A DNA stretch of 63,519 nucleotides from positions 1 to 63,519 of IMG/VR virus record IMGVR_UViG_3300022602_003808, one strand, 5' to 3'. Made by a program: the position numbers and the translations under genes. Below are positions 1,762-52,304 of this stretch, one piece after another (position 1 is the first letter of the stretch; each line of letters begins with the position of its first letter). The notes below the pieces were generated by a model, which saw nothing but the letters and a program-made list of their open reading frames with translations, was not told the origin of the DNA and made no database searches. The stretch is from a virus (lineage: Duplodnaviria > Caudoviricetes).

Positions 1762-1765
1762 AACC

Positions 1766-21620: not shown

Positions 21621-21621
21621 A

Positions 21622-24183
21622 TTAAGAGAACATTTCAAATAGGTCTGTTGTTACTTCGTTAGTTAAATCTGGTAACCGCCAGCCAATAGCTTCATATACA
21701 GCTAATATAGGCGGTTTAATTATTGTATTGAACATTTCAATATAATCTACTTGAAAATCGTTAAATTCTGGTGGAAAGTTGTAAGGGTAGCAAAGAGTAT
21801 CAATGTTATACTTGTTTGGTGCAATATAAATCTTCTTTACTTTACCACCAGAAGTAATACGTTCATACTTCGTTTCTAAATGTAAGTGCTTCAATAACTG
21901 ATTATACCAAATAGCACCTTTAACGTGATTAGGTGTACCTGTGCCTATTTTAAATCCATCTGCCTTAACTTCGTATTTCTCTAAATCGCTAAGACCGCCA
22001 CGGATTGCAATTTCATCTACATTAAGTACTTTAAATGCATCATAAACCTCTTTGTAAAGACTGTTTGCCTTTATTTGATCCTGACCTAGCAGAGAGTTCT
22101 CAATAACCTTCTTAATCAGTTCTTTTGCTTTCTTCGGCGTGGTAGATCTAGCGATTTCAACACCAACATACTTAAACTTATTAACGTTTGCACCTTCATC
22201 GTTTAATACGTGAATAATATAACGTTTCTTCTGTAGATAAACACCTACATCGCAAATCGATTCTCGTTTAAAGAAGTAACGAGGATCAACAGATTTAAAC
22301 TCAGAAGCAGACCACTTTTTAATTTCACTATTTAAATATGTACCAATCTCTTTATCAATTAAATCTATACCTTCTGGCGTTACTTTACCGTCAGCAAATA
22401 ACTTTACCTTAAGCTTATCAACAATTGGTTGAATAGTGATGTGAGTGCTGTCAGTGTCACCATATATATTAAGAGAAACGTTAACATTGTATCTTTCTTT
22501 AGCATATGTATCAAGGATAACACCTGCCTGCTTAACCACTGACTGGCCAGTAAGAGTAATACTACCGGCGTGATCACTATCGCAAATAGGACTAAACTTG
22601 TTAGCAAAAACACCGTAAATAGAATTAAGAAGAATCTTAATGACGTGCTGTATGGTGTCAGCTCGTTCCATATTAAACTTACACGCTTTGTGTTCATCTG
22701 TGTCTGGAGTTAGATTACTTAGCTGTTTCTTATATTCAATGTACTGATTCTTATTTCTTACACGTTCACTGTAAAGACTATCAATTAACGAAGGTACAAC
22801 ACCTTTCTTTTTCTGAGTATACAAAACGTTAGCTTTAGATATAGAAAGTTTTTCTATCTCGACTAGTTTATTAAACTTTTCGTGAGAAATAGTAAAGTCT
22901 TTACCGCTAACCATTAATAATGTAACATCAGTATCAGTCTTCTTAATAATCTTACCCAGTTTAGTTTCTGGTGAAATATTTAAAGTAATGATAGTGTTAG
23001 GGTATAGAGAGTTAGCGTCATAGCTAACAATAGATGTCTTTAAGCCACGCTCTGGATCTCTAACATAACCACCTTCAATTTCATCTCTAGTGGGCCCCGA
23101 AACGAAAGTAGGTATGACCATACCGTGCTTGTATGCTTCTAATGCAACACAACCAGTAACAATGGATACTTTACCTAAAGCAGCTTCAAAGCTAGTTAAA
23201 CCTTTATAAGCTAACATACGAATGATTTTAAAAAACTGTAGTTTCTTTTCCATTCGTACAAGTAGATCAACGTCTTGAATATTATAATCTACAAAGTTAT
23301 TCCAATCGTTTTCAGATAGAGAAGCTAAATTAGTAGCATTGATAGCTAGTTTACCTTCACCTAATTCGTGTTGTGCAACAAAGTTTAGTGCATATGATTC
23401 TAACAGACCACGTGCAAAGCCTTTATAAACTTCAAGATAGTCCATTGCTGATATACCGTGAATGTACCAACGATCTAACTCTTGACCTTTAACAAAGATA
23501 CCTTTACGGCACCAAAGACTCTTTAACGGTGATAAGCGTTTAGCTGCATTTTCACCTAATAAGTTATTAATACGGTTAATAGTATAAGGAAAGTCGAAAA
23601 AGTCTGTGTTCCACCCGGATAATATGTCTGGGTAGTAATCGTTCTCCCAAAACTCTAAAAACTTATTGAGTAGATCTACTTCACTAGAGCATTCCGTATA
23701 TACAACGTTTTTACGAGACGGGGTATAGGGTTTACAGCCCCAGGTATAAAACGTTTCAGATAAGTTGTCGTATATCGTTATAAGGTTAATAGGGTGCTTA
23801 GCATCCTTAGCTTCAGGAAACTCATCTGGAGAATAAACTTCGATATCAAGAAAACAAACCTTTAATGGGTTAGCAGAAAACTCAGGCTTTTCGTAATCGT
23901 CTTTATACTTCTCAATAAGAAACTGCTGTTCTACCTGAATGTTATGATATAAACGTTTGATAGCACCGTCTTGTGCAGATTTGTTACGTTCAAACGCATT
24001 CTTAAATACTTTCTTCTTTAACTTAGTATTAAAGATAGATATAGCATCGTGATTATCTTGATTAGTCTCTACATAAAAATAGGGACTATAGATCTCTTTC
24101 TTAACAGTCCTATTACCGTTTTTATCCCAGGTAAATAGGTATGCTATAGATTCGCGTGAGTTATAATATACGTTACGATACAC
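21622..24183 (-). CDS. Family B DNA polymerase gp43
   Basis: DIEV, GWN..FD, YNIQD, DANSLYP, KILLNSIYG and YGDTDS. Promoter TTGATT-16-CATAAT at 24191-24218. Confidence 0.97.
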   Translation of the reverse strand: MYRNVYYNSRESIAYLFTWDKNGNRTVKKEIYSPYFYVETNQDNHDAISIFNTKLKKKVFKNAFERNKSAQDGAIKRLYHNIQVEQQFLIEKYKDDYEKPEFSANPLKVCFLDIEVYSPDEFPEAKDAKHPINLITIYDNLSETFYTWGCKPYTPSRKNVVYTECSSEVDLLNKFLEFWENDYYPDILSGWNTDFFDFPYTINRINNLLGENAAKRLSPLKSLWCRKGIFVKGQELDRWYIHGISAMDYLEVYKGFARGLLESYALNFVAQHELGEGKLAINATNLASLSENDWNNFVDYNIQDVDLLVRMEKKLQFFKIIRMLAYKGLTSFEAALGKVSIVTGCVALEAYKHGMVIPTFVSGPTRDEIEGGYVRDPERGLKTSIVSYDANSLYPNTIITLNISPETKLGKIIKKTDTDVTLLMVSGKDFTISHEKFNKLVEIEKLSISKANVLYTQKKKGVVPSLIDSLYSERVRNKNQYIEYKKQLSNLTPDTDEHKACKFNMERADTIQHVIKILLNSIYGVFANKFSPICDSDHAGSITLTGQSVVKQAGVILDTYAKERYNVNVSLNIYGDTDSTHITIQPIVDKLKVKLFADGKVTPEGIDLIDKEIGTYLNSEIKKWSASEFKSVDPRYFFKRESICDVGVYLQKKRYIIHVLNDEGANVNKFKYVGVEIARSTTPKKAKELIKKVIENSLLGQDQIKANSLYKEVYDAFKVLNVDEIAIRGGLSDLEKYEVKADGFKIGTGTPNHVKGAIWYNQLLKHLHLETKYERITSGGKVKKIYIAPNKYNIDTLCYPYNFPPEFNDFQVDYIEMFNTIIKPPILAVYEAIGWRLPDLTNEVTTDLFEMFS

Positions 24184-34319: not shown

Positions 34320-34811
34320 ATGGATTTAGGCCATTGGACTACAAATGAAAATATTGACAATGATAATTTACCTTACGGGTTTATATATCGTATTATTAAC
34401 ACCGTGTCTGGTAAAATATATTTTGGAAAAAAACAAATTAAAAGCGTTAAAAAACTTAAACCTCTCAAAGGAAGAAAAAACAAAAGACACTTCGACATAG
34501 AGACGGATTGGAAATCTTATACTTCATCTTCTAACGACGTTAATGAAGATATAGAGAGGTTAGGCAAAGACAAATTTAAGTTTGAAATAATACGTTTTTG
34601 TGATAGTAAGTTTGAATTAGCTTATTATGAAGCTAAAATACAGTTTGATCATAATGTTTTGCTTAAAGAAGGATACTACAACGGTATTATAAATTGCCGT
34701 ATCGGAAGAGCACCAAATGCGTTGTTAAATAAGCTTGCACAACAGGAGAATAGTACTACAATAACAAATAATGCAGCTCAAAGAACTCAAATACAATCTT
34801 TATCTTGCTGA
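34320..34811 (+). CDS. GIY-YIG (Seg-like) nuclease-family protein
   Basis: GFIYRIIN...KIYFGKK, WKSYTSSS and YYN. Confidence 0.75.
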   Translation: MDLGHWTTNENIDNDNLPYGFIYRIINTVSGKIYFGKKQIKSVKKLKPLKGRKNKRHFDIETDWKSYTSSSNDVNEDIERLGKDKFKFEIIRFCDSKFELAYYEAKIQFDHNVLLKEGYYNGIINCRIGRAPNALLNKLAQQENSTTITNNAAQRTQIQSLSC

Positions 34812-37159: not shown

Positions 37160-37624
37160 ATGAGTAAATTTATTTCTACTAAAGTTATACCGTTAGGTTC
37201 TTGTGCTTTTCGTCAACCCTATGCAACTAGCCATTGCAAGTTTATACACGGCTATCGTTTGCAGGCTAAGTTTTGGTTTAGTTGTGACAAATTAGATCAA
37301 AATAACTGGGTAGTAGATTTCGGTTCTTTAAAACCACTTAAAGCTCAATTAGAAGAAATATTTGATCACAAAACAGTTGTTTGGTCAAAAGACCCGCAAA
37401 TAGATATCTTTAAATTATTAGAAGCACAGGGTATGGTAGAGTTAGTTACACTAGATGATGGTGTTGGTATTGAGCGATTTGCCGAACTTTGTCATAAAAT
37501 GGCTAATCAACACGTAAAAGACCTGACTAACGGTCGTTGCTGGTGTTCTAAAGTAGAAGTCTGGGAACACGAAGGAAATAGCGCAATTTATAAAGATAAA
37601 CTACAAACAGAGTGGAAAAGCTAA
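37160..37624 (+). CDS. queD: 6-carboxytetrahydropterin synthase
   Basis: SHCKFIHGY, VVDFG, FDH and EVWE. Promoter TTGAGT-16-TACTAT at 37127-37154. Confidence 0.93.
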   Translation: MSKFISTKVIPLGSCAFRQPYATSHCKFIHGYRLQAKFWFSCDKLDQNNWVVDFGSLKPLKAQLEEIFDHKTVVWSKDPQIDIFKLLEAQGMVELVTLDDGVGIERFAELCHKMANQHVKDLTNGRCWCSKVEVWEHEGNSAIYKDKLQTEWKS

Positions 37625-37645: not shown

Positions 37646-38452
37646 ATGTCTAATATTGACCCTAATACAACTTTATTCATTTCAGATGATTTCGTATTCT
37701 ATACTCTAGAAGGTGAAGGTCGTTACATTGGCTATCCTTCAGTGTTTATGAGAATGGCAATGTGCAACTTAACGTGCATAAATTTCAAGAGTGAAGACTC
37801 GCCTTTCGGTTGTGATAGTTACATAAGCTGGTCTAAGAAAAATAAAATGACATTCGAAGAAGTAGCACAACTCTTTGAAAAGAATGATTATCACGAGCGC
37901 TTAAAACAAGGTGCTTTGTTAAAGTTAACCGGCGGTGAACCTTTTATTCAGCAAAAGAACTTATTACTGTTTGTTAAGTTTATTAGAGATCGTTGGGGGT
38001 TTCAAAACTACAGCAGAACATTAACAGTGGAAGATGTTGGTAAGCCTACATTACATATAGACTTTGAAACTAACGGTACCATTATGCCAGATGAAGAGTG
38101 GTCTTGTCTTGGTGTACGGGTAACATATACTACTTCTCCTAAACTATCTAGTAATGGAGATCCTGTTGAAAAGCGTTATAAACCAGAAGTATTACGTTAT
38201 CTAGCTGTACACGATGCTTGCTTTAAGTTTGTAGCTAAACAAGAATCAGACTTAAATGAAGTACTAGAGAATTATCTCAATAATCCTGAAGTAGCTGTAC
38301 GTTCAGATCAAGTATGGATTATGCCTTGCTGTGGTAGCCGTAAAGAATTACTAGAAGTAGGGCCTGTAGTGGCTGAACTCTGTAAGAAATATAATTTTAA
38401 GTTCTCTAACAGAATGCACTTGCAGGTCTGGGATAAAGCACTTAAGGTTTAA
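37646..38452 (+). CDS. queE: 7-carboxy-7-deazaguanine synthase (radical SAM)
   Basis: TLEGEG, CNLTC-x11-CD, TGGEP, ETNG, SPK and RMHLQVW. Confidence 0.95.
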   Translation: MSNIDPNTTLFISDDFVFYTLEGEGRYIGYPSVFMRMAMCNLTCINFKSEDSPFGCDSYISWSKKNKMTFEEVAQLFEKNDYHERLKQGALLKLTGGEPFIQQKNLLLFVKFIRDRWGFQNYSRTLTVEDVGKPTLHIDFETNGTIMPDEEWSCLGVRVTYTTSPKLSSNGDPVEKRYKPEVLRYLAVHDACFKFVAKQESDLNEVLENYLNNPEVAVRSDQVWIMPCCGSRKELLEVGPVVAELCKKYNFKFSNRMHLQVWDKALKV

Positions 38453-38884: not shown

Positions 38885-39601
38885 ATGAGTCACTCTAAAC
38901 TTAATAAAATCGGCATTATTGGTACACAATGCATTGGCAAATCTACATTGGTAGATGATATGATACTGCAATGGCCGCAATTATGTAAGTCACAAAAAAC
39001 GTACCGCGATCTTATTAAAGAAAAGAAACTACCTGTTAATAAAAACGGTACCAAAGAATCTCAACAAGCCATACTTAACTTTCTCGTTGATGAAGCAATG
39101 GCTAATTACGGCAATAAAAAAATGATTTTTGACCGTACACCTATTGATAATTTAGTTTATTCTTTATGGCTCTACGATAAGGGTGTAACAGATATTGATG
39201 AGGATTTTATTGATAAATCAATTATACAGGCTAAAGAAGCAATTAAATCTTACTCTATAATTTTCTATATTCCTCTCACTAAAGAAAATGACGTACTCCT
39301 TCAGATTAAAGAGAATAGAGATATTGATCCTATTTATCGCGGAGAAATAGCAGTACTATTTGATACTATTTATAGGGCCTGGGAATCTGGTGCTTCGCGT
39401 TTCTTTGATACTGAAGATCGCACACCTATTATACCTTTATACGGTACACCATTAGAGCGTATAGCAATGGCTAATCTTTATATTAACGAAAAATGTGAAT
39501 TTTTCGGTGAAGAAGATTCTTTAATTAAAGGAGATATTGCTGAACAACAAATGCTTGCTGACCAACTAGGATTAACGGATAAGAAACAGTTTAAATTGTA
39601 G
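38885..39601 (+). CDS. Second P-loop nucleotide kinase-like (AAA_28) protein
   Basis: GTQCIGKST and IFDRTPIDNLVYS. Confidence 0.8.
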   Translation: MSHSKLNKIGIIGTQCIGKSTLVDDMILQWPQLCKSQKTYRDLIKEKKLPVNKNGTKESQQAILNFLVDEAMANYGNKKMIFDRTPIDNLVYSLWLYDKGVTDIDEDFIDKSIIQAKEAIKSYSIIFYIPLTKENDVLLQIKENRDIDPIYRGEIAVLFDTIYRAWESGASRFFDTEDRTPIIPLYGTPLERIAMANLYINEKCEFFGEEDSLIKGDIAEQQMLADQLGLTDKKQFKL

Positions 39602-39616: not shown

Positions 39617-40258
39617 ATGAAATTCGATGATGCTATTAACTATATTGCTGAGTCCACACTTAATGCGGAAATGGCTCGGCATAAAAATCTTGCTGTACTT
39701 GCAAGAGCAGCTGAACTTGAAAAGAAAGGTCTTTCACCTTCTACTGCAAAAGCTTACGCCTGGAAAGAATTAAGAGCTGGTAAGCTAGGTAGCTCTTCTG
39801 AACCAATAGCTGTTGAACCTGCAGCTGATGAACCATCGAAGCCTGTAGCAGGTTTTAAGCGCTCTACAGAAGCATTAAGAGCTAAAGAACAGGTTGAAGA
39901 CTTTTTAGAATTCAATCGTTCTGCTACTGCAGAAGATGTTGCTGTAGCTCTTGATCTTGATCCTGAATTAGTAAATTCAGTGTATGATGATGCTAAGAAT
40001 GAGATTAAAAATGTAAAAACTTCAGAACCCAGTGAAGAACCTGGTGAAGAAGAAGTAAAAGATCTCGAAAAAGATAAATTAGCTCGTATTAGAGATCAAA
40101 TTATGAAGCTACGCGGGCTCAAAGGCAAACACAAGCACGTAAAAGCACCAAAAGATATTGATGCATCTACAGATGATGATGAATTATCCCCAGCTGTTGA
40201 TCCTGACATTCAAGACTACGTAGGTCGTACTGGTGGTAGTGTTGATCAAGAAAATTAA
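39617..40258 (+). CDS. Hypothetical acidic late protein
   Basis: TAAGTA at 39602, then MKFDDAINYIAE. Confidence 0.7.
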   Translation: MKFDDAINYIAESTLNAEMARHKNLAVLARAAELEKKGLSPSTAKAYAWKELRAGKLGSSSEPIAVEPAADEPSKPVAGFKRSTEALRAKEQVEDFLEFNRSATAEDVAVALDLDPELVNSVYDDAKNEIKNVKTSEPSEEPGEEEVKDLEKDKLARIRDQIMKLRGLKGKHKHVKAPKDIDASTDDDELSPAVDPDIQDYVGRTGGSVDQEN

Positions 40259-40704
40259 AGATACTTTTCGGTAAGAATAATAAACTTCATACCTTTTTTA
40301 GCCGCGTAATCACTCGCGGCTTTCCATTTGGCTTGATTCTTGTGCCACATTAACTGTTCATACAACACAGTACTAGATTTCTTTTTAGTAGACTGCACTG
40401 GTGGTTGTGTTTGAGCGTGTGGTTTAAGTTCAATTAAATATTTTTGTACATTACCGTCTTTGTCCTTGATTGCTGCAATTAAGTCTACATAATAGTTGTG
40501 TACTTTATTATCTATTTCACTGTAATACGGTACAACAATGCCCTCGCTTGCCCAGGCGGTAACGTTAGAATTTTGATCAAAAAACAAAAAGAAGTCTCTT
40601 TCTAATGCAGATCTATAAACAGGATTCGACGAACCCATATATTTATTTTTATTAATAGGGTTATAAATTCCTTGAATAAACTTGCTATTTTTAGGGTACC
40701 CCAT
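40255..40704 (-). CDS. Head completion protein gp4 (TnsA-like fold)
   Basis: YNPINKNKY.G, YRSALE, WASE, YYVD, IELKP and NQAKWKAA. Confidence 0.92.
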   Translation of the reverse strand: MGYPKNSKFIQGIYNPINKNKYMGSSNPVYRSALERDFFLFFDQNSNVTAWASEGIVVPYYSEIDNKVHNYYVDLIAAIKDKDGNVQKYLIELKPHAQTQPPVQSTKKKSSTVLYEQLMWHKNQAKWKAASDYAAKKGMKFIILTEKYL

Positions 40705-40720: not shown

Positions 40721-41734
40721 ATGCTTATACCGCAAAATTTTGTAATACAAACATTCTTCCAATACGCGAAGAGACCTGTATACAAGAAAACCGCTAATAC
40801 ATATAATGCGGAATGCCCTTATTGCCACGAAGGTAAAAGTACGGGTAAAAAGCGTAGATTCTTTTACATACCGGAAGACGATCATTTGTTTTGTCATAAT
40901 TGCGGTGAAAGTAAAAACGGATTAGAGTTTGTTAAAGAAATGACCCATATGTCAGTTAGTGAGATACTAGCTGAATCCGGTAGTCACGCGGATACGGTTG
41001 AAGACTTAATTAAGAAGTCGGATTTTTATAAAAAGGCTAACCCCAACCCTTTACCGTACGATAGTATTAATTTATTCGATAGTAATCAGGTATCATTTTA
41101 TAAAGAAAACCAGGTAGTTAGGGATGCTCTTGAGTTTATCAATAAAAGACGCTTAGATACTGCTATTAATAAGCCTAAAACGCTTTGGATTAGCTTGACT
41201 GATATGACTCATAAGAATAGAGTAGTGTTTCCGTTCTACAACACTGAGGGTAAAATAGTAACTTATCAATCAAGAGCTTTATATAAAGAAGATGAAGATA
41301 GAGCAAAGTACCTTTCTAAAGTTAATAGCGATAAAGGTATATTTAATTTAGATAAAGTATCTTCTGATATAGATTATATATTCTTGCAAGAAGGACCTAT
41401 TGATGCTATGTTTTTGCGTAATAGTGTAGCATTAGCTGGTATACATCCTACAGAAGAACAATTAGAAATGTTGCAAAAAGCATACCCTATGCACAGCTTA
41501 GTCTATGTACTAGATAACCAATGGGTAGATAAAACTTCTTACAAAATAACTAAAGAACTTCTAGAAAGAGGTGAAACCGTGTTTATATGGCCTTCAGTAC
41601 CGTATAAAGATTTTAATGAAATGTGCATTGCTAATAACACTAGTAGTGTATCGATTGACTTCGTTCTACCTGACTGTCATAAAGGTATGAGAGGTTTAAT
41701 AGAATTTTCAAAAATTAAATGCAAACAAAATTAA
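40721..41734 (+). CDS. DNA primase gp61
   Basis: CPYC...FCHNCG Zn finger, EGPIDAMF and LDN. Start at 40721, after TTGCTA-16-TATACT. Confidence 0.95.
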   Translation: MLIPQNFVIQTFFQYAKRPVYKKTANTYNAECPYCHEGKSTGKKRRFFYIPEDDHLFCHNCGESKNGLEFVKEMTHMSVSEILAESGSHADTVEDLIKKSDFYKKANPNPLPYDSINLFDSNQVSFYKENQVVRDALEFINKRRLDTAINKPKTLWISLTDMTHKNRVVFPFYNTEGKIVTYQSRALYKEDEDRAKYLSKVNSDKGIFNLDKVSSDIDYIFLQEGPIDAMFLRNSVALAGIHPTEEQLEMLQKAYPMHSLVYVLDNQWVDKTSYKITKELLERGETVFIWPSVPYKDFNEMCIANNTSSVSIDFVLPDCHKGMRGLIEFSKIKCKQN

Positions 41735-41766
41735 TAGCAGTAACACAACCGAGACGTTTAAAGTAA

Positions 41767-42483
41767 TTAACGAGAGCTAATTTTGCTTGTAGCGTCGTGA
41801 ATCTTCTTACCAGAGCTTGTAACTACTGTTTTGAATAGTTCTGCTAAGCCGCGTAAGTTTTCTGCTAATTTAGTAATACGCTTTTCTTCACGACGGACAA
41901 TACCTTTAAAAGGAATTGAGTTACGCATTTCTAGCGCATTAATTTGAGCATTTAAACTTTCTTCATCAGTACCGTTAATGAATGTTGCCATATCATCAAG
42001 CTTTTTGATCCATTGACGTGCTTTTTCAACACCTTCTGTATCTAACTTTAATGATGGGTTAGATTCTGAGTCAAACTTACTATGATCTGTATCTTTGTCT
42101 AAAGTCTTTTTCCAGGCTGCCTCTCCATCTGGTTCGGGTGTAGGAGCAGGAGTCGGTGCTGGTTTAGCTTCCATACCTAAGCTTGCACCGTAAAAGTTTT
42201 CTGCAATTTTTTCAGCTTTTGAAGTTGCAATAGCACCACGAATGTCCTTACCATAACGCTTTTCAATATCTTTCTTGGGTAAACCTTTATAAATTTTATT
42301 GCGCTCAGCTTTTTGAGCTGCAGTCATATGTTTTTCTTCTTTTACAGGAAAAGTCTTGCCGCCAAGCTTGAATTCCTTTTTACCAGCTTCTTTTGCTTTT
42401 TGATCTTTAAAGTGCATAACACCAGCACCTTCTTTATCTAGGGATTCATTAAATGCATCTTGGAACAAATTCTTCATATACAT
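41767..42483 (-). CDS. Hypothetical late protein
   Basis: TAAATA upstream. Contains AKEAGKKEFKLGGKTFPVKE and a GAIATSKA segment, typical of T4-like head-associated proteins. Confidence 0.7.
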   Translation of the reverse strand: MYMKNLFQDAFNESLDKEGAGVMHFKDQKAKEAGKKEFKLGGKTFPVKEEKHMTAAQKAERNKIYKGLPKKDIEKRYGKDIRGAIATSKAEKIAENFYGASLGMEAKPAPTPAPTPEPDGEAAWKKTLDKDTDHSKFDSESNPSLKLDTEGVEKARQWIKKLDDMATFINGTDEESLNAQINALEMRNSIPFKGIVRREEKRITKLAENLRGLAELFKTVVTSSGKKIHDATSKISSR

Positions 42484-42534
42484 TATTTACTACTTTTTTA
42501 TTGAATTTCTATAAATCTACACTATTATAACTAT

Positions 42535-43257
42535 ATGTCAAAAGCACTAGTCATATTATCAGGCGGTATGGATAGTACCGTATTATTACATTATGTAACT
42601 AAGACTCTTAGTTATGATGAAGTTTATGCTGTAACGTTTAACTACGGGCAACGGATTGCTAGAGAGATTGATTGTGCTAGATTCCAAGCTAAAGTGTGTA
42701 GTGTTAAAGAACATAAAGTTATTGATATGGATTTCTTTAGAGATATCTCTACGATGTCAGCTTTAACTAATACAGACTTGAAAATACCTAAAGCTAAAGA
42801 TGATATTGGTAATGCACAACCTTTAAGCTATGTCCCGTTCAGAAACCTATTACTATTAACAAGTGCAGCAGGTTGGGCTGAATCTATTAATGCACAAGAC
42901 CTGTTTTATGGTGCAGTAGAAGTCGACGATCACAGTGGCTATTGGGATTGCACGACAATGTTTCTAAATAAAGTTAATGACATTTACGGTCTTAATCGCA
43001 AGAATACTATTAAAGTTAATGCGCCGTTTATGCGCTATTCTAAAGAGGAAGTAATTAAGACCGGTATTGACTTACAGGTAGACTTTAGACAAACACACAC
43101 CTGTTATGAAGGTACTGATCCTGCTTGTGGAGAATGTGTGTCGTGTGCTGCACGTATTAAAGGTTTTATTGACAACAAAGCTATTGATCCTATTAAATAT
43201 TCACGTAATATTCCTTGGGAACAATATGATTGCAAACCTTTAACCTATTTAACATAA
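42535..43257 (+). CDS. queC: 7-cyano-7-deazaguanine synthase
   Basis: SGGMDST, YGQR, YVPFRN and CY...CGECVSC..R. Promoter TTGAAT-16-TATTAT. Confidence 0.96.
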   Translation: MSKALVILSGGMDSTVLLHYVTKTLSYDEVYAVTFNYGQRIAREIDCARFQAKVCSVKEHKVIDMDFFRDISTMSALTNTDLKIPKAKDDIGNAQPLSYVPFRNLLLLTSAAGWAESINAQDLFYGAVEVDDHSGYWDCTTMFLNKVNDIYGLNRKNTIKVNAPFMRYSKEEVIKTGIDLQVDFRQTHTCYEGTDPACGECVSCAARIKGFIDNKAIDPIKYSRNIPWEQYDCKPLTYLT

Positions 43258-43258
43258 T

Positions 43259-43915
43259 ATGTGCGGTATAGCTGGTTCAAAATATAAAGATAAAGCTTTT
43301 AATTTATACAAAGATAATCTTGCAAGAGGTTATTATAGTTCAGGTGCATTAACATTAGACTCTAATGACCAATACCACGTACACAAAACTGAAGGTATTT
43401 TTAATGAACCTATAGACTGTTTTAACCCGCCGGGTATAGACACTCGCGGTCGTTACTTTTTATATCATTCCCGTGGCCCTACTGTTGAAACAAAATCATT
43501 TGAAGCGATAAACAATCACCCGTTCATTTATGGTGATTGGATAGTGGCTCATAACGGTATTATCAGTAATTTTGAGAGTTTATGTAGAGAGTATTTTCCT
43601 GACGAAGATTTTACCGGTAGGACAGACAGCTGTATTATACCGCGTATGTTAGAAATAAAGATAAAAGTATCAGAAGCTATGGAATCTCTTAAAGGTACAT
43701 ATGCTATATGGGCTTTTAATAGCAAACACAAAAAAACCTATTTAGCTAGAAGTGCAAGTACACTATTTGCAAATCCAATTACGGGATGTTTTTCGTCTAC
43801 TGAATTTGAAGGTAGTGAATCCTTAAACGAGGGGATTGTTTATGCAATACAGGATTACGATTGTATAGTGCCTGCTGGGAGATTTAAGCATAAATCTCCG
43901 TACTTTATATTCTAA
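43259..43915 (+). CDS. Stand-alone class II (Ntn) glutamine amidotransferase
   Basis: N-terminal MCGIAG, ARG, HSR.PT, NHPF, AHNG and TDS. Confidence 0.9.
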   Translation: MCGIAGSKYKDKAFNLYKDNLARGYYSSGALTLDSNDQYHVHKTEGIFNEPIDCFNPPGIDTRGRYFLYHSRGPTVETKSFEAINNHPFIYGDWIVAHNGIISNFESLCREYFPDEDFTGRTDSCIIPRMLEIKIKVSEAMESLKGTYAIWAFNSKHKKTYLARSASTLFANPITGCFSSTEFEGSESLNEGIVYAIQDYDCIVPAGRFKHKSPYFIF

Positions 43916-43923
43916 GTATAATT

Positions 43924-44295
43924 ATGCCTTCAAAAAAGACTACGCCCGATCGTAATACAGCTATAGACTATATCAATAGAGATATAGTAAACGTAAAGGA
44001 AGATCTTGCTAATATTAGCAAAATTGTACGAGATGGAAATGGACATCCGAGTCTGATGCAACAGGTCGCGACCATTAATAGCGATTTATTACATTTAAGA
44101 TCTGAACTTGATAGTAAGATAACAGAAACACGAGAGTATATACAGGCCGTACACGACGAATTACAAATTTCAGTTAATAAGTGTGATGCTAAACATAAAG
44201 AAAAGCAAGGCCTACATTGGCATATGCAAACAGCTATTTGGGTTGCGTTAATTAGTAGTGTTACTGATTTGTTAATTCATTTTTTCGGAAAATAG
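43924..44295 (+). CDS. Coiled-coil protein with C-terminal TM helix (holin-like?)
   Basis: TAAGTA upstream and a hydrophobic C-terminus. Confidence 0.55.
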   Translation: MPSKKTTPDRNTAIDYINRDIVNVKEDLANISKIVRDGNGHPSLMQQVATINSDLLHLRSELDSKITETREYIQAVHDELQISVNKCDAKHKEKQGLHWHMQTAIWVALISSVTDLLIHFFGK

Positions 44296-44337
44296 TAGTA
44301 GATTTATTTTTATAAACCTTTATACTGTAAGCACTAT

Positions 44338-44598
44338 ATGAAAGGCTTACAGTTAAATACAGAAGAAAAACAACTACTAGTAGAGTCATTGCTTTTTACA
44401 GCAAGTTGTGATATCTGTTCTGATCATACCCCGGTACATCGCAAGCGTATGCTTGATTTGGCTGAGAGAATTAATGATAAGAACATTAAGCTGCACAATA
44501 TTTTTATATACGAAACTGGCGTTAGTGATGACTTTACTGTTGATGAATTAAACAATAGAATTCCTAACATACCACGCCAAACAGTTATTAAAGACTAA
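44338..44598 (+). CDS. Hypothetical protein
   Basis: 86 aa; promoter TAGATT-16-TATACT. Confidence 0.7.
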   Translation: MKGLQLNTEEKQLLVESLLFTASCDICSDHTPVHRKRMLDLAERINDKNIKLHNIFIYETGVSDDFTVDELNNRIPNIPRQTVIKD

Positions 44599-45281
44599 TG
44601 AACGTTTATATTAGTTTTTGTTCTACAGCTACCTCTTACTCAGATCTTAAAAACAGAAGTAAATTTACCATTCTGAATAGTGAGAGTTTAGAAAATGTTA
44701 AAACTACAAACGGAGCTTTTAATAATAAAACTGCTATTGCTAAAATTTACAATTCATATATTGATTCTCATAAAGATGAAGATTGTATTTTGGTACTAGC
44801 ACACGATGACGTTGTTATTATTGATAAAAACTGGATAGAGAAATTAAATCAAGCCTTAAATCAATACGACGTGGTAGGACTGGCGGGCGGTACAAATGCA
44901 GCTATTAGAGAGCCCGCGCTTTGGCATATAATGTGCCCTAAAGACTGCTTAAGTGGAGATGTACAACATTTAGCCCCTAACGGTAAAGCGTTCAATACCC
45001 ATTTTGGTAAAAACGGAAGAGTGTTGCTATTGGATGGTTTATTTTTAGCATTTAACCCTAAAAAGATAGCTGCAGCCGGAGCAAAATTTGATGAGACCTG
45101 CCCGGCTAAGTTTCATTTCTATGATTTAGATTTTAGTTTAACTTGCAATAAAAATAAATTAAAACTAGGAACTACAAATATTGAAGTCGTACATACTTCT
45201 CCGGGATTGAAATCTTTTACGGATGATTGGCTTGCAGGACAAAAATGGTTTTTAGACAAAGCAAGATCTGGACAATATTAA
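44598..45281 (+). CDS. GT-A glycosyltransferase-like protein
   Basis: AKIYN, LAHDDV, VGLAG, LDGLFLA and FHFYDLDFSL. Confidence 0.82.
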   Translation: MNVYISFCSTATSYSDLKNRSKFTILNSESLENVKTTNGAFNNKTAIAKIYNSYIDSHKDEDCILVLAHDDVVIIDKNWIEKLNQALNQYDVVGLAGGTNAAIREPALWHIMCPKDCLSGDVQHLAPNGKAFNTHFGKNGRVLLLDGLFLAFNPKKIAAAGAKFDETCPAKFHFYDLDFSLTCNKNKLKLGTTNIEVVHTSPGLKSFTDDWLAGQKWFLDKARSGQY

Positions 45282-45302
45282 TTTTTATAATACAATACTA
45301 CT

Positions 45303-45884
45303 ATGATTATCAAAGACCAAACTATCTATAACGGCGATTTTATTCACAAGCGTTTTGCTTATAAGTATTTTAGAGATAAGACTCTAGCTGTAGGTAACAT
45401 TGTTAGCTATGTCGCGCCTGTAGAAGTTACAATAAACCTTATTGACTTAGAGGATTCTCTAGAGAAAGATTATATCTATAGTGATTCTATGATTAACTTC
45501 TGTTGGGAAATACCTAACTTAGATCCATTCGGTGCAGTTTGTTTTCAGCGCCTGTTTAATACAGCAATTGCTAATATTTTACACACTTATATTAAGAAAC
45601 CTATCGAAATGAAAGGCGATGACTTAATTGTACACGCTGAACATAATCAAGGCGGTATTGTACAACAGAAAGGTAAAGCTTCAGTTAGCATTACATACTC
45701 TAAAGACAATGTAGCTATTGGCCACACCGGTATTAATATTAGTGCTGGTAAGAAAGCTCCTGCTTTTGCGTTTAGTACTAACCTTTCACCTACAGATGCT
45801 GAGAAGTTTCAATTACAGGTACATCAACAATTCTATCAAATGGTAGACAATATATTTGTAGCTACTGCTAAGGTAATTGTTTAA
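45303..45884 (+). CDS. DUF366-family protein (biotin/lipoate ligase-like fold)
   Basis: YNG..IH..FAY, LIDLED, IYSDSMINF, FQRL, GDDL, KASVSI and GHTGIN. Confidence 0.75.
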   Translation: MIIKDQTIYNGDFIHKRFAYKYFRDKTLAVGNIVSYVAPVEVTINLIDLEDSLEKDYIYSDSMINFCWEIPNLDPFGAVCFQRLFNTAIANILHTYIKKPIEMKGDDLIVHAEHNQGGIVQQKGKASVSITYSKDNVAIGHTGINISAGKKAPAFAFSTNLSPTDAEKFQLQVHQQFYQMVDNIFVATAKVIV

Positions 45885-46276
45885 TGTTTGATTCAATAAA
45901 CAGAGTACTTTATAAGACTAAAGGTTTTGATACTAGTAACATTAACGAGAGTAAGGAATTTCAACCATTCCTTATTCAACGTTGGTGTTCTATGTATTCA
46001 GCACCTATAGCTCATATTGTTAATGAAACTACTAACAGATATTGGAAGTGTTTTGAGAACAATAACGACTGGTTTACTGCTTTAGATACTGTTATCCCGG
46101 CCTGTAAATTCAAGCGGATTAGTTATATTAAAAAAACTAAAAAAGAAGCAGTAAAGAAGAGTAACGAAAACCTTTTAAAGATTGCAAATAACCTTGAAAT
46201 TTCCAGTAGAGAGGTAAATCAGTATATAGAGCAATTTAATTTAAAAATTCCAAATGAAGAAAAATCTACAACATAA
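45884..46276 (+). CDS. Possible clamp-loader small subunit gp62-like protein
   Basis: FQPFLIQRWCSM..VNETN and IP..K..ISYIKK pattern. Confidence 0.5.
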   Translation: MFDSINRVLYKTKGFDTSNINESKEFQPFLIQRWCSMYSAPIAHIVNETTNRYWKCFENNNDWFTALDTVIPACKFKRISYIKKTKKEAVKKSNENLLKIANNLEISSREVNQYIEQFNLKIPNEEKSTT

Positions 46277-46706
46277 ACTTGAAAGAGACTTAAAACAGTA
46301 CGACAAAGTTGATCGTGAAAAAGCTCTTCAAGCCAACGAAGATATTGAAACAGATAATGTAAAAGGTTTAGTACAGCTCGATAATTATGCTGGATCTGAT
46401 ATTAATCTCAGTGACTGGAGATTAGACTCGCTTTTAGATGATATTATGATGTGCCAATTTGCAGATTGTAATGAAGATAACACTCAGATTATGAGAGACG
46501 GTATTTTTGTACCGGTTAATATGGTGCAATCTGCTTGGCGCGTTGCTAAAGTTATTATAGCGGGTCCTCGCTGTAAAACCAAGGTAGGTGAGCACGTAAT
46601 TTTTCCAAGTAACTTTGGAATTAAATGTGCTAAAATGAACGGGTTAAAAAACATTGTATTTCTTAACGAAGAACGTATTTTTGGCAGGGCAACTCCTGCT
46701 AAGTAA
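46254..46706 (+). CDS. GroES-like co-chaperonin (gp31-like)
   Basis: GIFVP, AKVIIAGP, KVGEHVIF and FLNEERIFG. Confidence 0.8.
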   Translation: MKKNLQHKLERDLKQYDKVDREKALQANEDIETDNVKGLVQLDNYAGSDINLSDWRLDSLLDDIMMCQFADCNEDNTQIMRDGIFVPVNMVQSAWRVAKVIIAGPRCKTKVGEHVIFPSNFGIKCAKMNGLKNIVFLNEERIFGRATPAK

Positions 46707-46711
46707 TATGG

Positions 46712-47086
46712 ATGTCCCCGGGTACATTAATTCAAATACTAAACACTCACGCTGTAGAGCTTAAATTTACAAGGCGTAGACCTTTACCTGGTATGTCATT
46801 TCGTAGAATGCTTGCAACTAACGACACCGATTTACTTAACAGTACGCCGGGTCGTTTGGCGCTTAATTTTCACGGAGCTCCGGGTAGATTAAAATTCAGC
46901 CCTGAACAAAAAGGATTGGTTATGACCTGGGATATATTTTTACAAGATTTTCGGTTAATACCAGCAGAGTCTGTAGAAATTGTAAGTGTAATTAGAACCT
47001 CTCCACCCGAAGAGTTTTGGAATTATTTTAATAACGTCTTATCAAAAATGCCAGAAACTCAAAAAGTGGAGTTTATGCACGTATGA
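46712..47086 (+). CDS. Hypothetical protein (possible SH3/WYL-like barrel)
   Basis: VELKFTRR...RRMLAT...WDI...FR pattern. Confidence 0.55.
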   Translation: MSPGTLIQILNTHAVELKFTRRRPLPGMSFRRMLATNDTDLLNSTPGRLALNFHGAPGRLKFSPEQKGLVMTWDIFLQDFRLIPAESVEIVSVIRTSPPEEFWNYFNNVLSKMPETQKVEFMHV

Positions 47087-47415
47087 CCGAAAAAATAGAT
47101 AATTTAATTAAGCCTTATTTACAAAAAAATATAGCTTTTACTTTTAAGCATAAAACATACAAAAGCGGAAAGCTTCTCTTATACAAGCTTTCAGGCAATT
47201 ACCTGTCTTTTGTAATAGTTAATGAAAAAAAGAAAGAAACCTTTGAAATACCGTTTCCGTACTCAGTAGAAGGAGATCTATCCAAACTACAATTTGATTA
47301 TAGATTGGATACACTAGCAGAAAACGACTTTGAATTGCTTATTGCATTAAGAGGTGTTACAAAGGTAAAAAATAGTCGGTTTTACGATAGTGTTTTAACG
47401 ATTTCAGCCTTGTAA
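47083..47415 (+). CDS. Hypothetical protein
   Basis: 110-aa ORF. Confidence 0.65.
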   Translation: MTEKIDNLIKPYLQKNIAFTFKHKTYKSGKLLLYKLSGNYLSFVIVNEKKKETFEIPFPYSVEGDLSKLQFDYRLDTLAENDFELLIALRGVTKVKNSRFYDSVLTISAL

Positions 47416-47451
47416 TTTTAAGATAGTACCGTATACTCTATCTTTTATTAA

Positions 47452-49059
47452 ATGAAGATAGAACAACCAATATTAAGTTATTTTCCTGAAAACTGCCAAC
47501 CTAGAGAGCATCAAATTTCTGGGTTACAGCAGATAGAAGAAGCTATAAATAGCGGTTTTAAGTACATTATTGTACAAGCACCTACTGGTTCGGGTAAGTC
47601 TTTTTTTAGTAAAACACTAGCTAATACTACAAGCGGTCCTGATCCGGAATATGTAAAATTAGTAGAAACGTATCAAGCATACGATAAGGATTTTGAGGGT
47701 AGTTTTTCGAGATTTGCACCGCACGGGCTGTTTGCTTTAACCACTACTAAAGCTCTACAGGATCAATACAGTAATCTGTTCAAGGATAGTGTTATTTTTA
47801 AGGGAAAAACCAACTATCAATGTGAAGTTGATGATAGCTTTACAGTTGACCACGCACCCTGTGTAATTTCACCTAACCTCAAGAAAAAATGCTGGGGAGA
47901 CTGTATTTGTCCGTATTACGAAACTCGTAATTCTGCATTAACTGAAAAGTTTACGGTATTAAACTATGCTTCTTTTTTTAATTTACCCGATCATTTAAAA
48001 AAACGTCAAATTATTGTGTGTGACGAAGCATCTGAAGTAGAAGATGAAATAGTAAAGAACTTTTCTGCATACATTAACTATAGACAATTCGATTATCTAG
48101 GCGTAACTATAGATAAACTCACATCTGAAGTACCTAAGAAAGTGTTAGGGTGGTTATCTGATGTTTGTAGTGCACTTGAAAGCGCAATCGATGAATTTTC
48201 AGATAGACCTCGTTATGAAAAACACAAAGCCGAACTTATAAAACAACAACAGCGTAAGGATCTTTATGAAGCTGTAGTGCACACCATTAATCACTGGGAA
48301 GACGCACAATACGTAGTAGAAAAAGATGCAGAAAAAGTGCTAGTTACACCGTTAAAAATTGACAAACTTACTCAATGTTTATTTGACTTTGCAGACGTAG
48401 TAGTGTTAATGAGTGCTACCATTGTAGACCGTGACATTTTTGCAAGAAATTTAGGTATAACTAATTACAAGTATATAGAGCTTCAGTCAACTTTTGACCC
48501 AAAAAAGAGCCCTATTTACCTTGGTTCTAAGTACCCGTTAAGTTTTAAAACAAAAAAGGAAAACTTACCTAAAATTATTGCTGAAGCTGCAAAAATTGCA
48601 GAACATCATAAAGATGAGAAAGGTATTATACATACCCATTCCTTTGAGTTTACCCAAGAAGTACAAAACAAAATACACGGTAAGAGGTTTTTGTATAGAG
48701 AAGAGGGTACTACTAACGAAACCATCGTAAAAGAGCATATTTTACGTACAGACCCTACAGTTTTAGTAAGTCCTTCATTAACTATGGGGTTAGATCTTAA
48801 GGGAGATCTCGGAAAATGGCAAATTATCATAAAATTACCATATCCGTCTAAAGCAAATAAGCGTATAGATCTACTTCTTGAGAAAGATCCGGATTGGTAC
48901 CGTATGAAAATGCTTATAACTTTAATCCAGGCTGCAGGTAGATGCACAAGAACTAAAGATGATGAAAGTGTAACCTATATTTTAGATGGATTAGCTAAAA
49001 AAGTTATAACAGAGAACAGAAACATACTACCAAAACACTTTTTAGATAGACTTATGTAA
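47452..49059 (+). CDS. DinG/XPD-family Fe-S helicase
   Basis: PREHQ, APTGSGKS, LQDQ, KGKTNYQC plus Cys cluster, DEA, MSAT and QAAGRCTR. Confidence 0.9.
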   Translation: MKIEQPILSYFPENCQPREHQISGLQQIEEAINSGFKYIIVQAPTGSGKSFFSKTLANTTSGPDPEYVKLVETYQAYDKDFEGSFSRFAPHGLFALTTTKALQDQYSNLFKDSVIFKGKTNYQCEVDDSFTVDHAPCVISPNLKKKCWGDCICPYYETRNSALTEKFTVLNYASFFNLPDHLKKRQIIVCDEASEVEDEIVKNFSAYINYRQFDYLGVTIDKLTSEVPKKVLGWLSDVCSALESAIDEFSDRPRYEKHKAELIKQQQRKDLYEAVVHTINHWEDAQYVVEKDAEKVLVTPLKIDKLTQCLFDFADVVVLMSATIVDRDIFARNLGITNYKYIELQSTFDPKKSPIYLGSKYPLSFKTKKENLPKIIAEAAKIAEHHKDEKGIIHTHSFEFTQEVQNKIHGKRFLYREEGTTNETIVKEHILRTDPTVLVSPSLTMGLDLKGDLGKWQIIIKLPYPSKANKRIDLLLEKDPDWYRMKMLITLIQAAGRCTRTKDDESVTYILDGLAKKVITENRNILPKHFLDRLM

Positions 49060-50318: not shown

Positions 50319-52304
50319 ATGGCCAATATTACCACAATTCTCAATACAGATATAGTTGCAAACAGTCGCACCACTATTAATAACAATTTTGCTGCGTTAA
50401 ATTCAGCTATAATTGCTTTATCTGGAGGCGGTGTTGGTGCTCAAGGCCCGCAAGGTGCAACCGGAGCAACAGGATCTGCAGGTGCAAATGGCGCTCAAGG
50501 TACTACCGGTACTTCTGGTTACAGTGGTTATAGTGGTGGTTCAGGGTATTCCGGTATATCAGGAGTTAATGGTTCATCTGTAACGATTATAGGTTCAGTA
50601 ACTCATTCTTATCAATTATCAAGTTTTGATCCTGTACCTAAAGTTGGAGATGGTATTATTACTACAGATACCGGTCACTTATGGGTTTATGATGGCAAGT
50701 ACTCCGGCGGCGAGGTTTACGGTTTTGCAGATGTAGGTAATATTACCGGTCCTGCAGGCGCACAAGGCGTACAAGGACCGCAAGGACCGGCTGGTTCTGG
50801 TGGCGGCGGAAGCGGTTATCAAGGTGCACAAGGTGTACAAGGACCGCAAGGCACGCAAGGTTATTCAGGTGTAGGACCGCAAGGCCCACAAGGTTTTTCA
50901 GGGTTTACTGGTACAGCTGGTGCACAAGGTAGTCAAGGTTATTCTGGTTACTCCGGAGCACAGGGCACTTCTGGTGCGGGGTATCAGGGCGCTCAAGGCG
51001 CTCCCGGTTCACAAGGTAATATAGGTTTCACCGGCCCCCAAGGAGCAACCGGTGCGGGATTCCAAGGCGCGCAGGGTGTTCAGGGGCCATCTGCACAATC
51101 TGGTTATTCCGGTTTTAATGGCACTATTGGTTCTAATGGAGCTTCTGGTTATTCCGGTTACTCTGGTGTGGGTACTCAAGGTGCGCAAGGATCAGCAGGT
51201 GCTTTTTCGGCTTCTGGTTACTCAGGTTTTAATGGAGCACAAGGCACACAAGGACCAACTGGTGCGCAGGGTTCCGGCCCACAAGGAGCGCAAGGTTCGC
51301 AAGGTGTTGCTTCATCCGGTTATTCAGGTTTTAGCGGTGTACAAGGTTCAGCCGGTACACAAGGTTTTCAAGGTACAGGCACTTCTGGTTATTCAGGGTA
51401 TAGCAGCACTTCTGGTTACTCTGGTTTTTCTGGCGTACAAGGTTCAACCGGTGTACAAGGCTCAACAGGTCCACAAGGATTTCAAGGTGTACAAGGTATA
51501 GCAGGATCTTATGCTGCTTCTGGTGTTTCTGGTTTTTCAGGTGTAAACGGTTTATCTGGTTATTCTGGCTATCAAGGAACTGCCGGTACTAACGGCACTG
51601 CTGGGGCGTCTGGTTACTCAGGCTATCAAGGACCACAAGGTTTAGGACCTCAAGGTTTTCAAGGAATACAAGGCCCTACAGGTAATCAAGGTGTTCAAGG
51701 TACTTCTGGTTATAGTGGTTTAGGTCTTTCTGGTTATTCTGGTTTAACTAGTTATTCTGGTTACTCAGGCGTGCCTGGAGCGATTGGTTATCAAGGAACA
51801 ACCGGTGCACAAGGCTCAACCGGTACATCAGGCTATTCTGGTTATTCCGGAGCACAGGGTACAAACGGAATAGGGGTAGCTGGTGCACAGGGATTTCAAG
51901 GTACACAAGGTCCTGGAGCGGGTACCAGTGGTTATTCAGGTTTTAGTGCTACTTCTACCTCGGGTTATAGCGGGGCTGCAGGTACACCAGGTACTTTAGT
52001 TAACAATACACAAAATTCTCCTTATGTGTTGCAAACAACCGATGTGGGTAAAGTTGTTAATGTAAGTTCTATAGCAGCAGGCGGCATTACAGTAAATATT
52101 AGTATTTTTACTGCCGGTCAAGCAGTAGCAATATTTAATAATACTACTTCCAACTTACAAATTACTCAAGGTTCTGGTGTTACAATGTATCTAGGTGGTA
52201 CCAATACAACTGGTAACCGTACCTTATCGCAGTATGGTCTAGCTTCAGTACTTTGTGTATCTAGTACGACTGAATTTGTAATAGTAGGTCAAGGATTGAC
52301 ATAA
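50319..52304 (+). CDS. Collagen-like fibre protein
   Basis: Long G-X-Q and SGYSG triplet repeats, with a C-terminal YVLQTTD.GK fibre domain. Confidence 0.88.
   Translation: MANITTILNTDIVANSRTTINNNFAALNSAIIALSGGGVGAQGPQGATGATGSAGANGAQGTTGTSGYSGYSGGSGYSGISGVNGSSVTIIGSVTHSYQLSSFDPVPKVGDGIITTDTGHLWVYDGKYSGGEVYGFADVGNITGPAGAQGVQGPQGPAGSGGGGSGYQGAQGVQGPQGTQGYSGVGPQGPQGFSGFTGTAGAQGSQGYSGYSGAQGTSGAGYQGAQGAPGSQGNIGFTGPQGATGAGFQGAQGVQGPSAQSGYSGFNGTIGSNGASGYSGYSGVGTQGAQGSAGAFSASGYSGFNGAQGTQGPTGAQGSGPQGAQGSQGVASSGYSGFSGVQGSAGTQGFQGTGTSGYSGYSSTSGYSGFSGVQGSTGVQGSTGPQGFQGVQGIAGSYAASGVSGFSGVNGLSGYSGYQGTAGTNGTAGASGYSGYQGPQGLGPQGFQGIQGPTGNQGVQGTSGYSGLGLSGYSGLTSYSGYSGVPGAIGYQGTTGAQGSTGTSGYSGYSGAQGTNGIGVAGAQGFQGTQGPGAGTSGYSGFSATSTSGYSGAAGTPGTLVNNTQNSPYVLQTTDVGKVVNVSSIAAGGITVNISIFTAGQAVAIFNNTTSNLQITQGSGVTMYLGGTNTTGNRTLSQYGLASVLCVSSTTEFVIVGQGLT
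50430..51995 (+). repeat. Coding Gly-X-Y repeats (GxQGxQ interleaved with SGYSG)
   Basis: Many caagg and tctggtta units in frame. Confidence 0.85.

Follow-up and report, generated by a model that had tools for sequence, protein, structure and literature searches.

Eight 7-deazaguanine bases have been described in phage DNA, where they block restriction enzymes. One of the closest described systems is that of Flavobacterium phage immuto_2-6A, in which every G is replaced by fdPreQ1 and dG is undetectable; the name DpdN was given there to the formyltransferase of this phage (PMC10516641). A second described arrangement is the fusion of a glutamine amidotransferase domain (Gat) to QueC, which is known from Enterobacteria phage 9g and from Crenarchaeota (Hutinet et al., 2019; PMC6884629). 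The present study concerns a locus in an uncultured virus, IMG/VR record IMGVR_UViG_3300022602_003808, a fragment of 63.5 kb that is about 30% complete; the whole stretch of 63,519 nucleotides is referred to below as the window. At 42535-45884 of the window, a gene for QueC is followed by a stand-alone Gat, by a glycosyltransferase (GT) and by a protein of the DUF366 family. On balance, with somewhat better than even confidence, we regard this locus as the preQ0-forming end of a dispersed modification system of the DpdA3/DpdN type, in which Gat and DUF366 would be helpers in the supply of preQ0 (7-cyano-7-deazaguanine).

The first-pass annotation of this DNA had described a second que locus in which queC is followed 1 nt later by an N-terminal nucleophile (Ntn) amidotransferase, with a GT-A protein and a DUF366 protein close by. 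All of these genes proved to be real, and the locus amounts to more than an ordinary que cluster; the TAA of QueC ends at 43257 and the ATG of Gat begins at 43259. The locus, including its small open reading frames (ORFs), is composed as follows.

42535-43257, + strand: QueC, preQ0 synthase of the canonical zinc type (PF06508, E = 3.5e-60)
43259-43915, + strand: Gat, stand-alone class II (Ntn) glutamine amidotransferase (PF13522 GATase_6, 36.5 bits, cut-off 27; PF13537, 33 bits)
43924-44295, + strand: 123-residue ORF, a lineage-specific insert between Gat and GT (Prominin Pfam match, 17.1 bits, cut-off 34.3)
44338-44598, + strand: 86-residue ORF, a second lineage-specific insert (no Pfam match)
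44598-45281, + strand: glycosyltransferase-like protein of GT-A fold, Glyco_tranf_2_5 (PF13712, 42.6 bits, cut-off 27)
45303-45884, + strand: DUF366 protein (PH0223-like), candidate accessory protein of preQ0 synthesis (PF04017, 74.4 bits, cut-off 29.9)

Neither of the two small ORFs matched PHROGs or NCBIfam, and the sole Pfam match, that of the 123-residue ORF, is far under threshold; both ORFs were seen only where DUF366 is at least about 80% identical to that of the window. The description as a second que locus was also apt, since the remaining genes of the pathway lie elsewhere in the window.

10513-11238, - strand: FolE, GTP cyclohydrolase I, the first pathway step (PF01227, E = 2e-47)
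18524-19444, - strand: QueF (PF14819 and PF14489)
19434-20009, - strand: AAA_28 dTMP-kinase-like gene, between DpdN and QueF
20006-20590, - strand: DpdN-like (PurN-like) formyltransferase, 42% identical to YP_010114479.1 of immuto_2-6A
between the DpdA3-like and DpdN-like genes, - strand: 76-residue ORF
20814-21638, - strand: DpdA3-like transglycosylase, 49% identical to the 'DNA guanine transglycosylase' of immuto_2-6A
37160-37624, + strand: QueD (PTPS, PF01242, E = 8.8e-17)
37646-38452, + strand: QueE, whose top NCBIfam matches are QueE models, all under their curated cut-offs

The order DpdA3-small ORF-DpdN-dTMP-kinase-like gene-QueF is identical in immuto_2-6A, which is likewise a myovirus with a complete FolE-to-QueF set and dispersed que genes. 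The identity between the window DpdA3 and the DpdA of immuto_2-6A extends over 98% of the length, and proteins of the Campylobacter phage CP220 group are 41-42% identical; the Pfam TGT match of the window protein is weak (E = 8.6e-4), in line with the divergent DpdA3 subfamily. Membership of the DpdA3/DpdN gene set was recognized by identity in the case of DpdN and by Pfam together with NCBIfam in the case of five other genes. As the module matches that of immuto_2-6A, whose DNA contains fdPreQ1, the gene content of the window points to a DpdA3/DpdN-type system for 7-deazaguanine modification of DNA, with dispersed genes and with fdPreQ1 as its predicted end product. The two phages differ in that immuto_2-6A has a family A polymerase, whereas that of the window is of family B, and in their QueC proteins, which are only 23% identical, the four-cysteine motif of the window QueC not being aligned to cysteines in that of immuto_2-6A (locus L083, 4519-5400). 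Furthermore, Gat, the PF13712 GT and DUF366 are all missing from immuto_2-6A, and they are therefore true extras. A second AAA_28/dTMP-kinase-like gene is present after QueE (38885-39601, + strand), the first being placed as the immuto_2-6A 'thymidylate kinase'; many sister loci also have homologues of the AAA_28 kinase a few kilobases upstream of DUF366. The conservation of a nucleotide kinase within a base-exchange pathway is noteworthy.

DUF366 was examined in cells using metagenome contigs. Six cellular-type DUF366 sequences were aligned and used to scan metagenomes, which yielded 80 loci in 41 clusters at 70% identity; the loci were searched by tblastn with the que proteins of the window, and Pfam was applied to two neighbours on each side at one locus per cluster (127 ORFs). 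Co-occurrence of DUF366 with que genes, by which the first-pass annotation had proposed in advance to judge its idea, was found: an immediate neighbour encodes QueC, a QueE-like radical S-adenosylmethionine (SAM) protein, QueD or FolE in 35 of the 41 clusters. As a rule, QueC either overlaps DUF366 or ends 1-130 nt ahead of it, a QueE-like radical-SAM gene (about 245 residues) usually follows DUF366 directly, and the typical order is queD-queC-DUF366-queE-folE. All 19 of the radical-SAM neighbours tested had a QueE model as their best NCBIfam match, none of them at the curated cut-off, and among the 127 neighbouring ORFs no QueF, GATase or PF13712 domain was found at E <= 1e-4. Because DUF366 stands beside queC and queE with no QueF nearby, it is placed in preQ0 synthesis and not in the tailoring of preQ1. 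The nearest Protein Atlas clusters of DUF366 are mostly bacterial, with Bacillota the commonest. Two methanogens, M. jannaschii and M. acetivorans, were the only members of a set of 14 control genomes to contain the family, and a scan of genome contigs gave one contig, that of a mis-binned metagenome-assembled genome, with 0 further matches in 400 sampled genomes from the phylum of the latter. A fusion of QueC to DUF366 was not found using the cellular alignment, and a broad alignment gave no fused forms at all.

Two further features of these loci were observed. The phage QueE and the 19 metagenome radical-SAM neighbours fall far under the cut-offs of five NCBIfam QueE models, and DUF366 may be partnered with a QueE subtype that lacks a model. 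In addition, queC-DUF366-queE operons at seven loci also contain HGD-D (2-hydroxyglutaryl-CoA-dehydratase D-like) or DUF4416 genes, HGD-D being accompanied once by a BcrAD/BadFG ATPase.

The ligase-like fold that had been ascribed to DUF366 was confirmed by an AlphaFold2 model of the window protein based on a 68-row alignment (mean pLDDT 96.8). The model matches PDB entry 2DDZ, which is PH0223 of Pyrococcus horikoshii, with TM-scores of 0.80/0.82 (E = 1.9e-11), and matches biotin/lipoate ligases with TM-scores of about 0.44-0.59; a cellular member of the family reaches 0.63-0.71 against these ligases, and a BFVD fold search gave only lipoate-ligase-like viral proteins at about 0.5. The family profile (33 members) also matches 2DDZ (E = 5e-38), and PH0223 belongs to the same family and has the same fold as the window protein, with an identity of 22%. 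Across 22 phage and 11 cellular sequences, 19 residues are invariant, namely Y9, G11, V42, D48, D51, I58, F66, E69, Q82, R83, G105, D106, D107, K125, V128, S129, H141, G143 and N145. Since the phage protein retains all of them, the same function as that of cellular DUF366 is likely. The profile motif GDD...K-x-SVS...H-G-N was weakly aligned to the biotin ligase of M. jannaschii (2ej9; E = 0.0045), with K125 and H-G-N opposite KKLGG and GIGIN, a stretch that we take to be the adenylate-binding part of such ligases. Biotin/lipoate ligases are defined by a glycine-rich loop. Although the core fold is similar, DUF366 differs from these enzymes in that its aligned part did not reveal this loop, in its shorter length (193 residues) and in that no biotin-related or lipoate-related neighbours were seen; in Pfam, only PF04017 was reported for it and PF03099 (BPL_LplA_LipB) was not matched. 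The literature search gave no paper naming DUF366 or PF04017, and for PH0223 it gave only a two-hybrid table, in which the protein is listed among those grouped under self-interaction (PMC1414084).

The second helper would be Gat. Its N-terminus reads MCGIAG, with the cysteine nucleophile right behind the initiator methionine, and M1, C2, N99, G100 and D123 do not vary among 22 homologues of 31-53% identity. Gat aligns to the glutaminase domain of Escherichia coli GlmS (1xff; E = 1.4e-5), with HSR, HNG and TDS of Gat opposite HTR, HNG and TDT, which contain the glutamine-site residues of GlmS (Arg, Asn-Gly and Asp). With its 218 residues, Gat consists of the glutaminase domain only; no linked synthase (acceptor) domain was found in it using Pfam and NCBIfam, and its partner must therefore be a separate protein. 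An independent pairing occurs in Vibrio phage 2.275.O._10N.286.54.E11 (MG592671), an unrelated jumbo phage of 349 kb, where QueF, a YhhQ-like transporter, QueC, an Ntn hydrolase and FolE stand in a row according to the annotation; this Ntn protein, directly after QueC, shares 24.7% identity with Gat along 99% of its length. Unlike in the window, GT and DUF366 were not found in this phage (a 12.6-kb stretch, and tblastn of the record). Matches of 27.6% identity to Gat in Campylobacter phages A11a and A18a cover the same span as matches to bacterial GlmS.

One three-chain fold of QueC, GT and Gat was predicted, with Gat as the scored partner. Gat obtained an ipSAE of 0.39, compared with 0.05 for the best control, in which QueC was swapped and GT was retained, which lends weak support to the pairing; at least 47% of the contacts agree between runs and the partner pLDDT is at least 79. 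For calibration, the mark had been applied to 80 solved complexes, of which 58 reached it, and to 110 mismatched pairs, of which two did; passing scores of at most 0.60 came from just seven of the 80 solved complexes and from both of the passing mismatches. As the control at 0.05 had lost QueC while keeping GT, the confidence of the model concerns Gat against QueC, and the same control neither supports nor contradicts a contact between Gat and GT. The suggestion made earlier that the amidotransferase supplies ammonia to QueC is thus the best supported role for Gat, through adjacency, the retained catalytic residues, the Gat-QueC fusions known elsewhere, the Vibrio phage pair and, weakly, the predicted fold; Gat most likely feeds ammonia to QueC.

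QueC itself is of the ordinary kind. It exceeds the TIGR00364 equivalog cut-off (174.8 versus 150.3 bits) as well as that of PF06508 (203.5 versus 22 bits), and S9, G11, D13 and S14 of the PP-loop and Cys190, Cys198, Cys201 and Cys204 are invariant in a 33-row alignment; we take these two groups to be the ATP and zinc sites, respectively. Taken together, the following course of events may be envisaged. QueC would convert CDG (7-carboxy-7-deazaguanine) to preQ0, and Gat would dock on QueC and pass on ammonia derived from glutamine, so that the two could represent a split form of the layout of asparagine synthetase, in which an Ntn glutaminase is joined to a PP-loop ATPase. DUF366 would probably bind CDG, a carboxylate, or adenylate it, acting together with QueC, with QueE or with both; while the association was observed, its chemistry is conjectural, CDG being guessed as the ligand because it is the carboxylic acid intermediate at that step. 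The GT-A protein moves with the QueC-Gat-GT cassette and could have its role within the pathway or elsewhere. Such extras most probably aid preQ0 supply in a phage that needs to replace all of its guanine.

The distribution of DUF366 in phages was investigated using three IMG/VR scans, each with over 500 matching stretches; the loci examined are all members of a single large T4-like clade. Among close relatives (at least 78% identity, 80 loci fetched), 50 extend to QueC and all 50 have the order of the window, which is thus no accident, although these represent one lineage and are not independent. In distant phages, what follows DUF366 directly is always the same block, made up of homologues of 45884-46276, 46254-46706 and 46712-47086 and mostly continuing into a helicase and gp15. 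For 40 distant loci, 3 kb or more of upstream sequence could be inspected: QueC-Gat-GT was present at 19 of them, none of the three at 19, a divergent QueC alone at one and Gat-GT with a remoter QueC at one. Trio-free sites contain sugar-nucleotide enzymes, glycosyltransferases and methyltransferases or single genes (HSP20, 5'-3' exonuclease) upstream of DUF366. Islands of 5-8 kb lie directly upstream of DUF366 at nine loci, with genes for GDP-mannose dehydratase/epimerase, GTs, C- and O-methyltransferases, cytidylyltransferases and a radical SAM/SPASM protein.

Ten sister records in which DUF366 does not stand beside QueC were searched in full. QueC was present in seven of them, the three misses being fragments that are 12-15% complete, and DpdA3 was present in six, the misses being three fragments that are 27-42% complete and one that is 61% complete. 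In the seven sister records with DUF366 that are 60-100% complete, QueC was found in all seven and DpdA3 in six, and QueF and DpdN were each found in all five of the larger sister genomes searched. The recurrence of QueC, DpdA3, QueF and DpdN in the sister records therefore indicates that the whole clade carries the fdPreQ1-type set together with DUF366.

A number of observations weigh against the assignment of Gat and DUF366 to preQ0 supply. QueC alone is sufficient in vitro, which speaks against an essential role of DUF366, and McCarty et al. reportedly found in 2009 that bacterial QueC works with free ammonia. DUF366 is dispensable for phage deazaguanine DNA, as immuto_2-6A makes fdPreQ1 without DUF366, Gat or GT. 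In most sister phages DUF366 lies about 30 kb from QueC, and since it is fixed to the downstream block, away from QueC, its position in the window could be historical. In a tblastn search of 50,697 cultured-phage records, DUF366 was found in none of those with que genes; the sole match, in 'Microcystis phage MaAM05', lies in a bacterial-looking stretch with no que gene within 10 kb. This stretch (MW495066.1, 106417-126956) contains secDF, glyS, a peptidoglycan transglycosylase gene, fabI, fliM and pomA. In cells, six of the 41 clusters have no adjacent que gene: one comprises eight loci with the order glyS-PBP-DUF366, a context shared with the MaAM05 stretch, two are short contigs, one has a QueE 2-3 kb downstream in sister loci, one has no que match and one has QueC 3.3 kb away on the opposite strand. 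With the cellular alignment, fusions of DUF366 were seen only to Clp_N (four clusters) and to an M24 peptidase (one cluster). As for Gat, it is bound more closely to GT than to QueC in gene layout; in three sister genomes QueC and Gat are 0.9-1.1 kb apart with other genes between them, Gat is nearer to GlmS than to the Gat half of the phage Gat-QueC, and the pass in the fold prediction may stem from a likeness to solved enzymes that combine an Ntn glutaminase with a PP-loop. The Clp_N-DUF366 proteins, of which four of about 347 residues were noted, hint at ties to protein-binding modules.

The GT, which the first-pass annotation had not singled out, forms the starting point for the alternative with the most to be said for it, namely that QueC-Gat-GT makes a further-modified base in which GT decorates a 7-deazaguanine, free or in DNA, with a sugar or amino sugar, giving a product beyond the eight described. 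We consider this unlikely. Gat and GT have never been seen apart: GT is present at all 21 of the distant loci that have Gat near DUF366, and in the QueC regions of the seven larger sister genomes, where QueC lies between UvsX and the DnaB helicase, far from DUF366, Gat follows QueC in all seven and a PF13712 GT follows Gat in six, the seventh stretch ending inside Gat. QueC-Gat-GT thus occupies two genome positions, the primase/DUF366 interval or the UvsX/DnaB helicase interval, and because the trio occurs as a unit at both, GT is not safely a bystander. At 20 of the 27 loci where both ORFs are complete, the end of Gat and the start of GT share 4 nt and no gene intervenes; Gat-GT is the tightest pair of a cassette that moves as a unit. 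H69-D70-D71 of GT, an acidic DxD-like motif, and four further histidines are invariant in 22 homologues at 23-57% identity. A precedent for the glycosylation of a preQ0-derived base is HuiG of the huimycin pathway of Kutzneria albida, a GT encoded beside homologues of FolE, QueD and QueE as well as of QueC (PMC7439116); according to that source and a 2026 preprint, glycosylated preQ0-derived bases such as huimycin are known from small molecules only.

However, HuiG belongs to another GT family (PF13439) and to an actinomycete pathway for a small-molecule antibiotic that has no link to DNA, and DpdN would already cap the amine of preQ1. All cases of the Gat-GT linkage come from one T4-like clade, so that it may reflect one or two block moves, and overlaps of 4 nt are common between unrelated phage neighbours; the stop codon of DUF366, for example, shares 1 nt with the start of the ORF that follows. 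In the Vibrio phage, which has the only independent QueC-Gat pair, there is no GT beside it, and the phages of the present clade contain many other GTs and large sugar islands, with four other GT genes in the window alone. A tblastn search of the 50,697 phage records with GT gave no match, Protein Atlas gave no functional lead for it, and neither source offered a close relative that has been characterized. The first-pass annotation had proposed an undescribed hypermodification; the extra genes stand, and they look like hitherto unrecognized helpers of the pathway, but a new base, while possible, is not indicated. The conserved pairing of Gat with GT leaves limited room for chemistry beyond fdPreQ1, and in one version QueC-Gat-GT would make a ninth DNA 7-deazaguanine, perhaps glycosylated or amino-glycosylated, with Gat giving nitrogen to GT and/or QueC and with DUF366 as an enzyme of preQ0 synthesis common to phages, bacteria and archaea; this combination strikes us as fairly improbable.

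Other features of the cassette were noted in passing. A tie between Gat-GT and one QueC type was considered and dropped, as a divergent sister QueC of 261 residues is not immuto-like and retains the cysteine motif. In two sister genomes, the genes between QueC and Gat encode a UDP-galactopyranose mutase (locus L314, 1982-2968) and an IMP dehydrogenase/GMP reductase-like protein (locus L315, 2034-2990), and the presence of a GMP reductase-like gene in a guanine-replacement cassette may be meaningful. LAGLIDADG and GIY-YIG genes flank QueC at a further locus (L095, 109-660 and 1519-2262), and homing endonucleases might account for the mobility of the que cassette.

It could also be supposed that neither GT nor DUF366 has anything to do with the pathway, GT belonging to sugar metabolism and DUF366 to the downstream block, and that only QueC and Gat serve it. 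The constant position of DUF366 upstream of the same ORFs, whatever precedes it, would agree with this, as would the sugar and methyltransferase islands at that site in sister phages and the other GTs of the window; however, the queC-DUF366-queE linkage in cells is very hard to explain in this way, and GT accompanies Gat to the second genome position. We therefore judge this explanation improbable.

A low probability is also given to the proposal that Gat and QueC form an archaeosine-type synthase like the 9g fusion, converting preQ0 to archaeosine (G+) and yielding dG+ as a second base beside fdPreQ1. The likeness is real, in that an Ntn-type glutaminase and a QueC-type PP-loop enzyme occur by deazaguanine genes in phage 9g and Crenarchaeota as in the window, Gat adjoins QueC with some support from the predicted fold, and fused Gat-QueC together with DpdA yields dG+ in E. 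coli plasmid DNA (PMC6884629). In the window, however, there are two ORFs separated by a stop codon and a 1-nt spacer, and the QueC is a canonical equivalog that matches the QueC-like phrog_1550 (2e-61) over the Gat-QueC-type phrog_10428 (2.6e-21), while Gat, being of another PHROG, has no match to phrog_10428 at E <= 0.001. Moreover, QueF and DpdN, which accompany the cassette in the window and in the larger sister genomes, point to preQ1 chemistry, with which G+ would compete for preQ0, and the Vibrio phage pair likewise adjoins QueF.

That the aminomethyl nitrogen of preQ1 (or that of dPreQ1 in DNA) receives an acyl group through ligation by DUF366, as had been put forward in the first-pass annotation on the strength of its biotin/lipoate-ligase-like fold, to which the weak profile alignment to a biotin ligase may be added, is very improbable, since cellular DUF366 lies in preQ0 operons between queC and queE with no QueF, GATase or PF13712 among its neighbours, the phage protein keeps all family-invariant residues, suggesting the cellular function, the amine in question is already the predicted target of DpdN (PMC10516641) and immuto_2-6A makes fdPreQ1 without DUF366.

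The wider window is of T4 type, with a portal, capsid, prohead protease, gp15, UvsX, UvsY, gp32, DnaB-like helicase and family B polymerase, and a G+C content of about 34%. No cultured phage matched the stretch at the DNA level by blastn. A scan for promoters and terminators over 41700-47500 gave counts equal to those of shuffled sequences (24 versus 22.6 and 3 versus 3.1, respectively), and no operon boundaries are therefore claimed there. Several other genes of the window were noted. A 661-residue protein with collagen triple-helix repeats (50319-52304, + strand; Pfam E = 1.7e-43), probably a fibre protein, is encoded at 46% G+C, compared with about 34% elsewhere. A GT1 glycosyltransferase, a heme oxygenase and two tryptophan-halogenase-like flavoproteins stand in a row at 145-4588 (- strand), an unusual auxiliary set for a phage. 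A TnsA-like endonuclease gene (40255-40704, - strand) overlaps the start of the primase, and a SegE-like GIY-YIG gene is located at 34320-34811 (+ strand); these, too, may bear on the mobility of the que cassette.

The clade to which the window belongs is very common in water metagenomes, and it extends the known fdPreQ1 gene set by three conserved genes, although the supplementary tables of PMC10516641 and PMC6884629 could already include a stand-alone Gat. The only element from which a new base might still follow is the GT that is constantly beside Gat. If the assignment to preQ0 supply is true, a free-standing glutaminase acting with QueC would render preQ0 synthesis glutamine-dependent, and DUF366, a family whose structure has been solved, may be a missing helper of the preQ0 synthesis that feeds queuosine, archaeosine and the modified bases of DNA.

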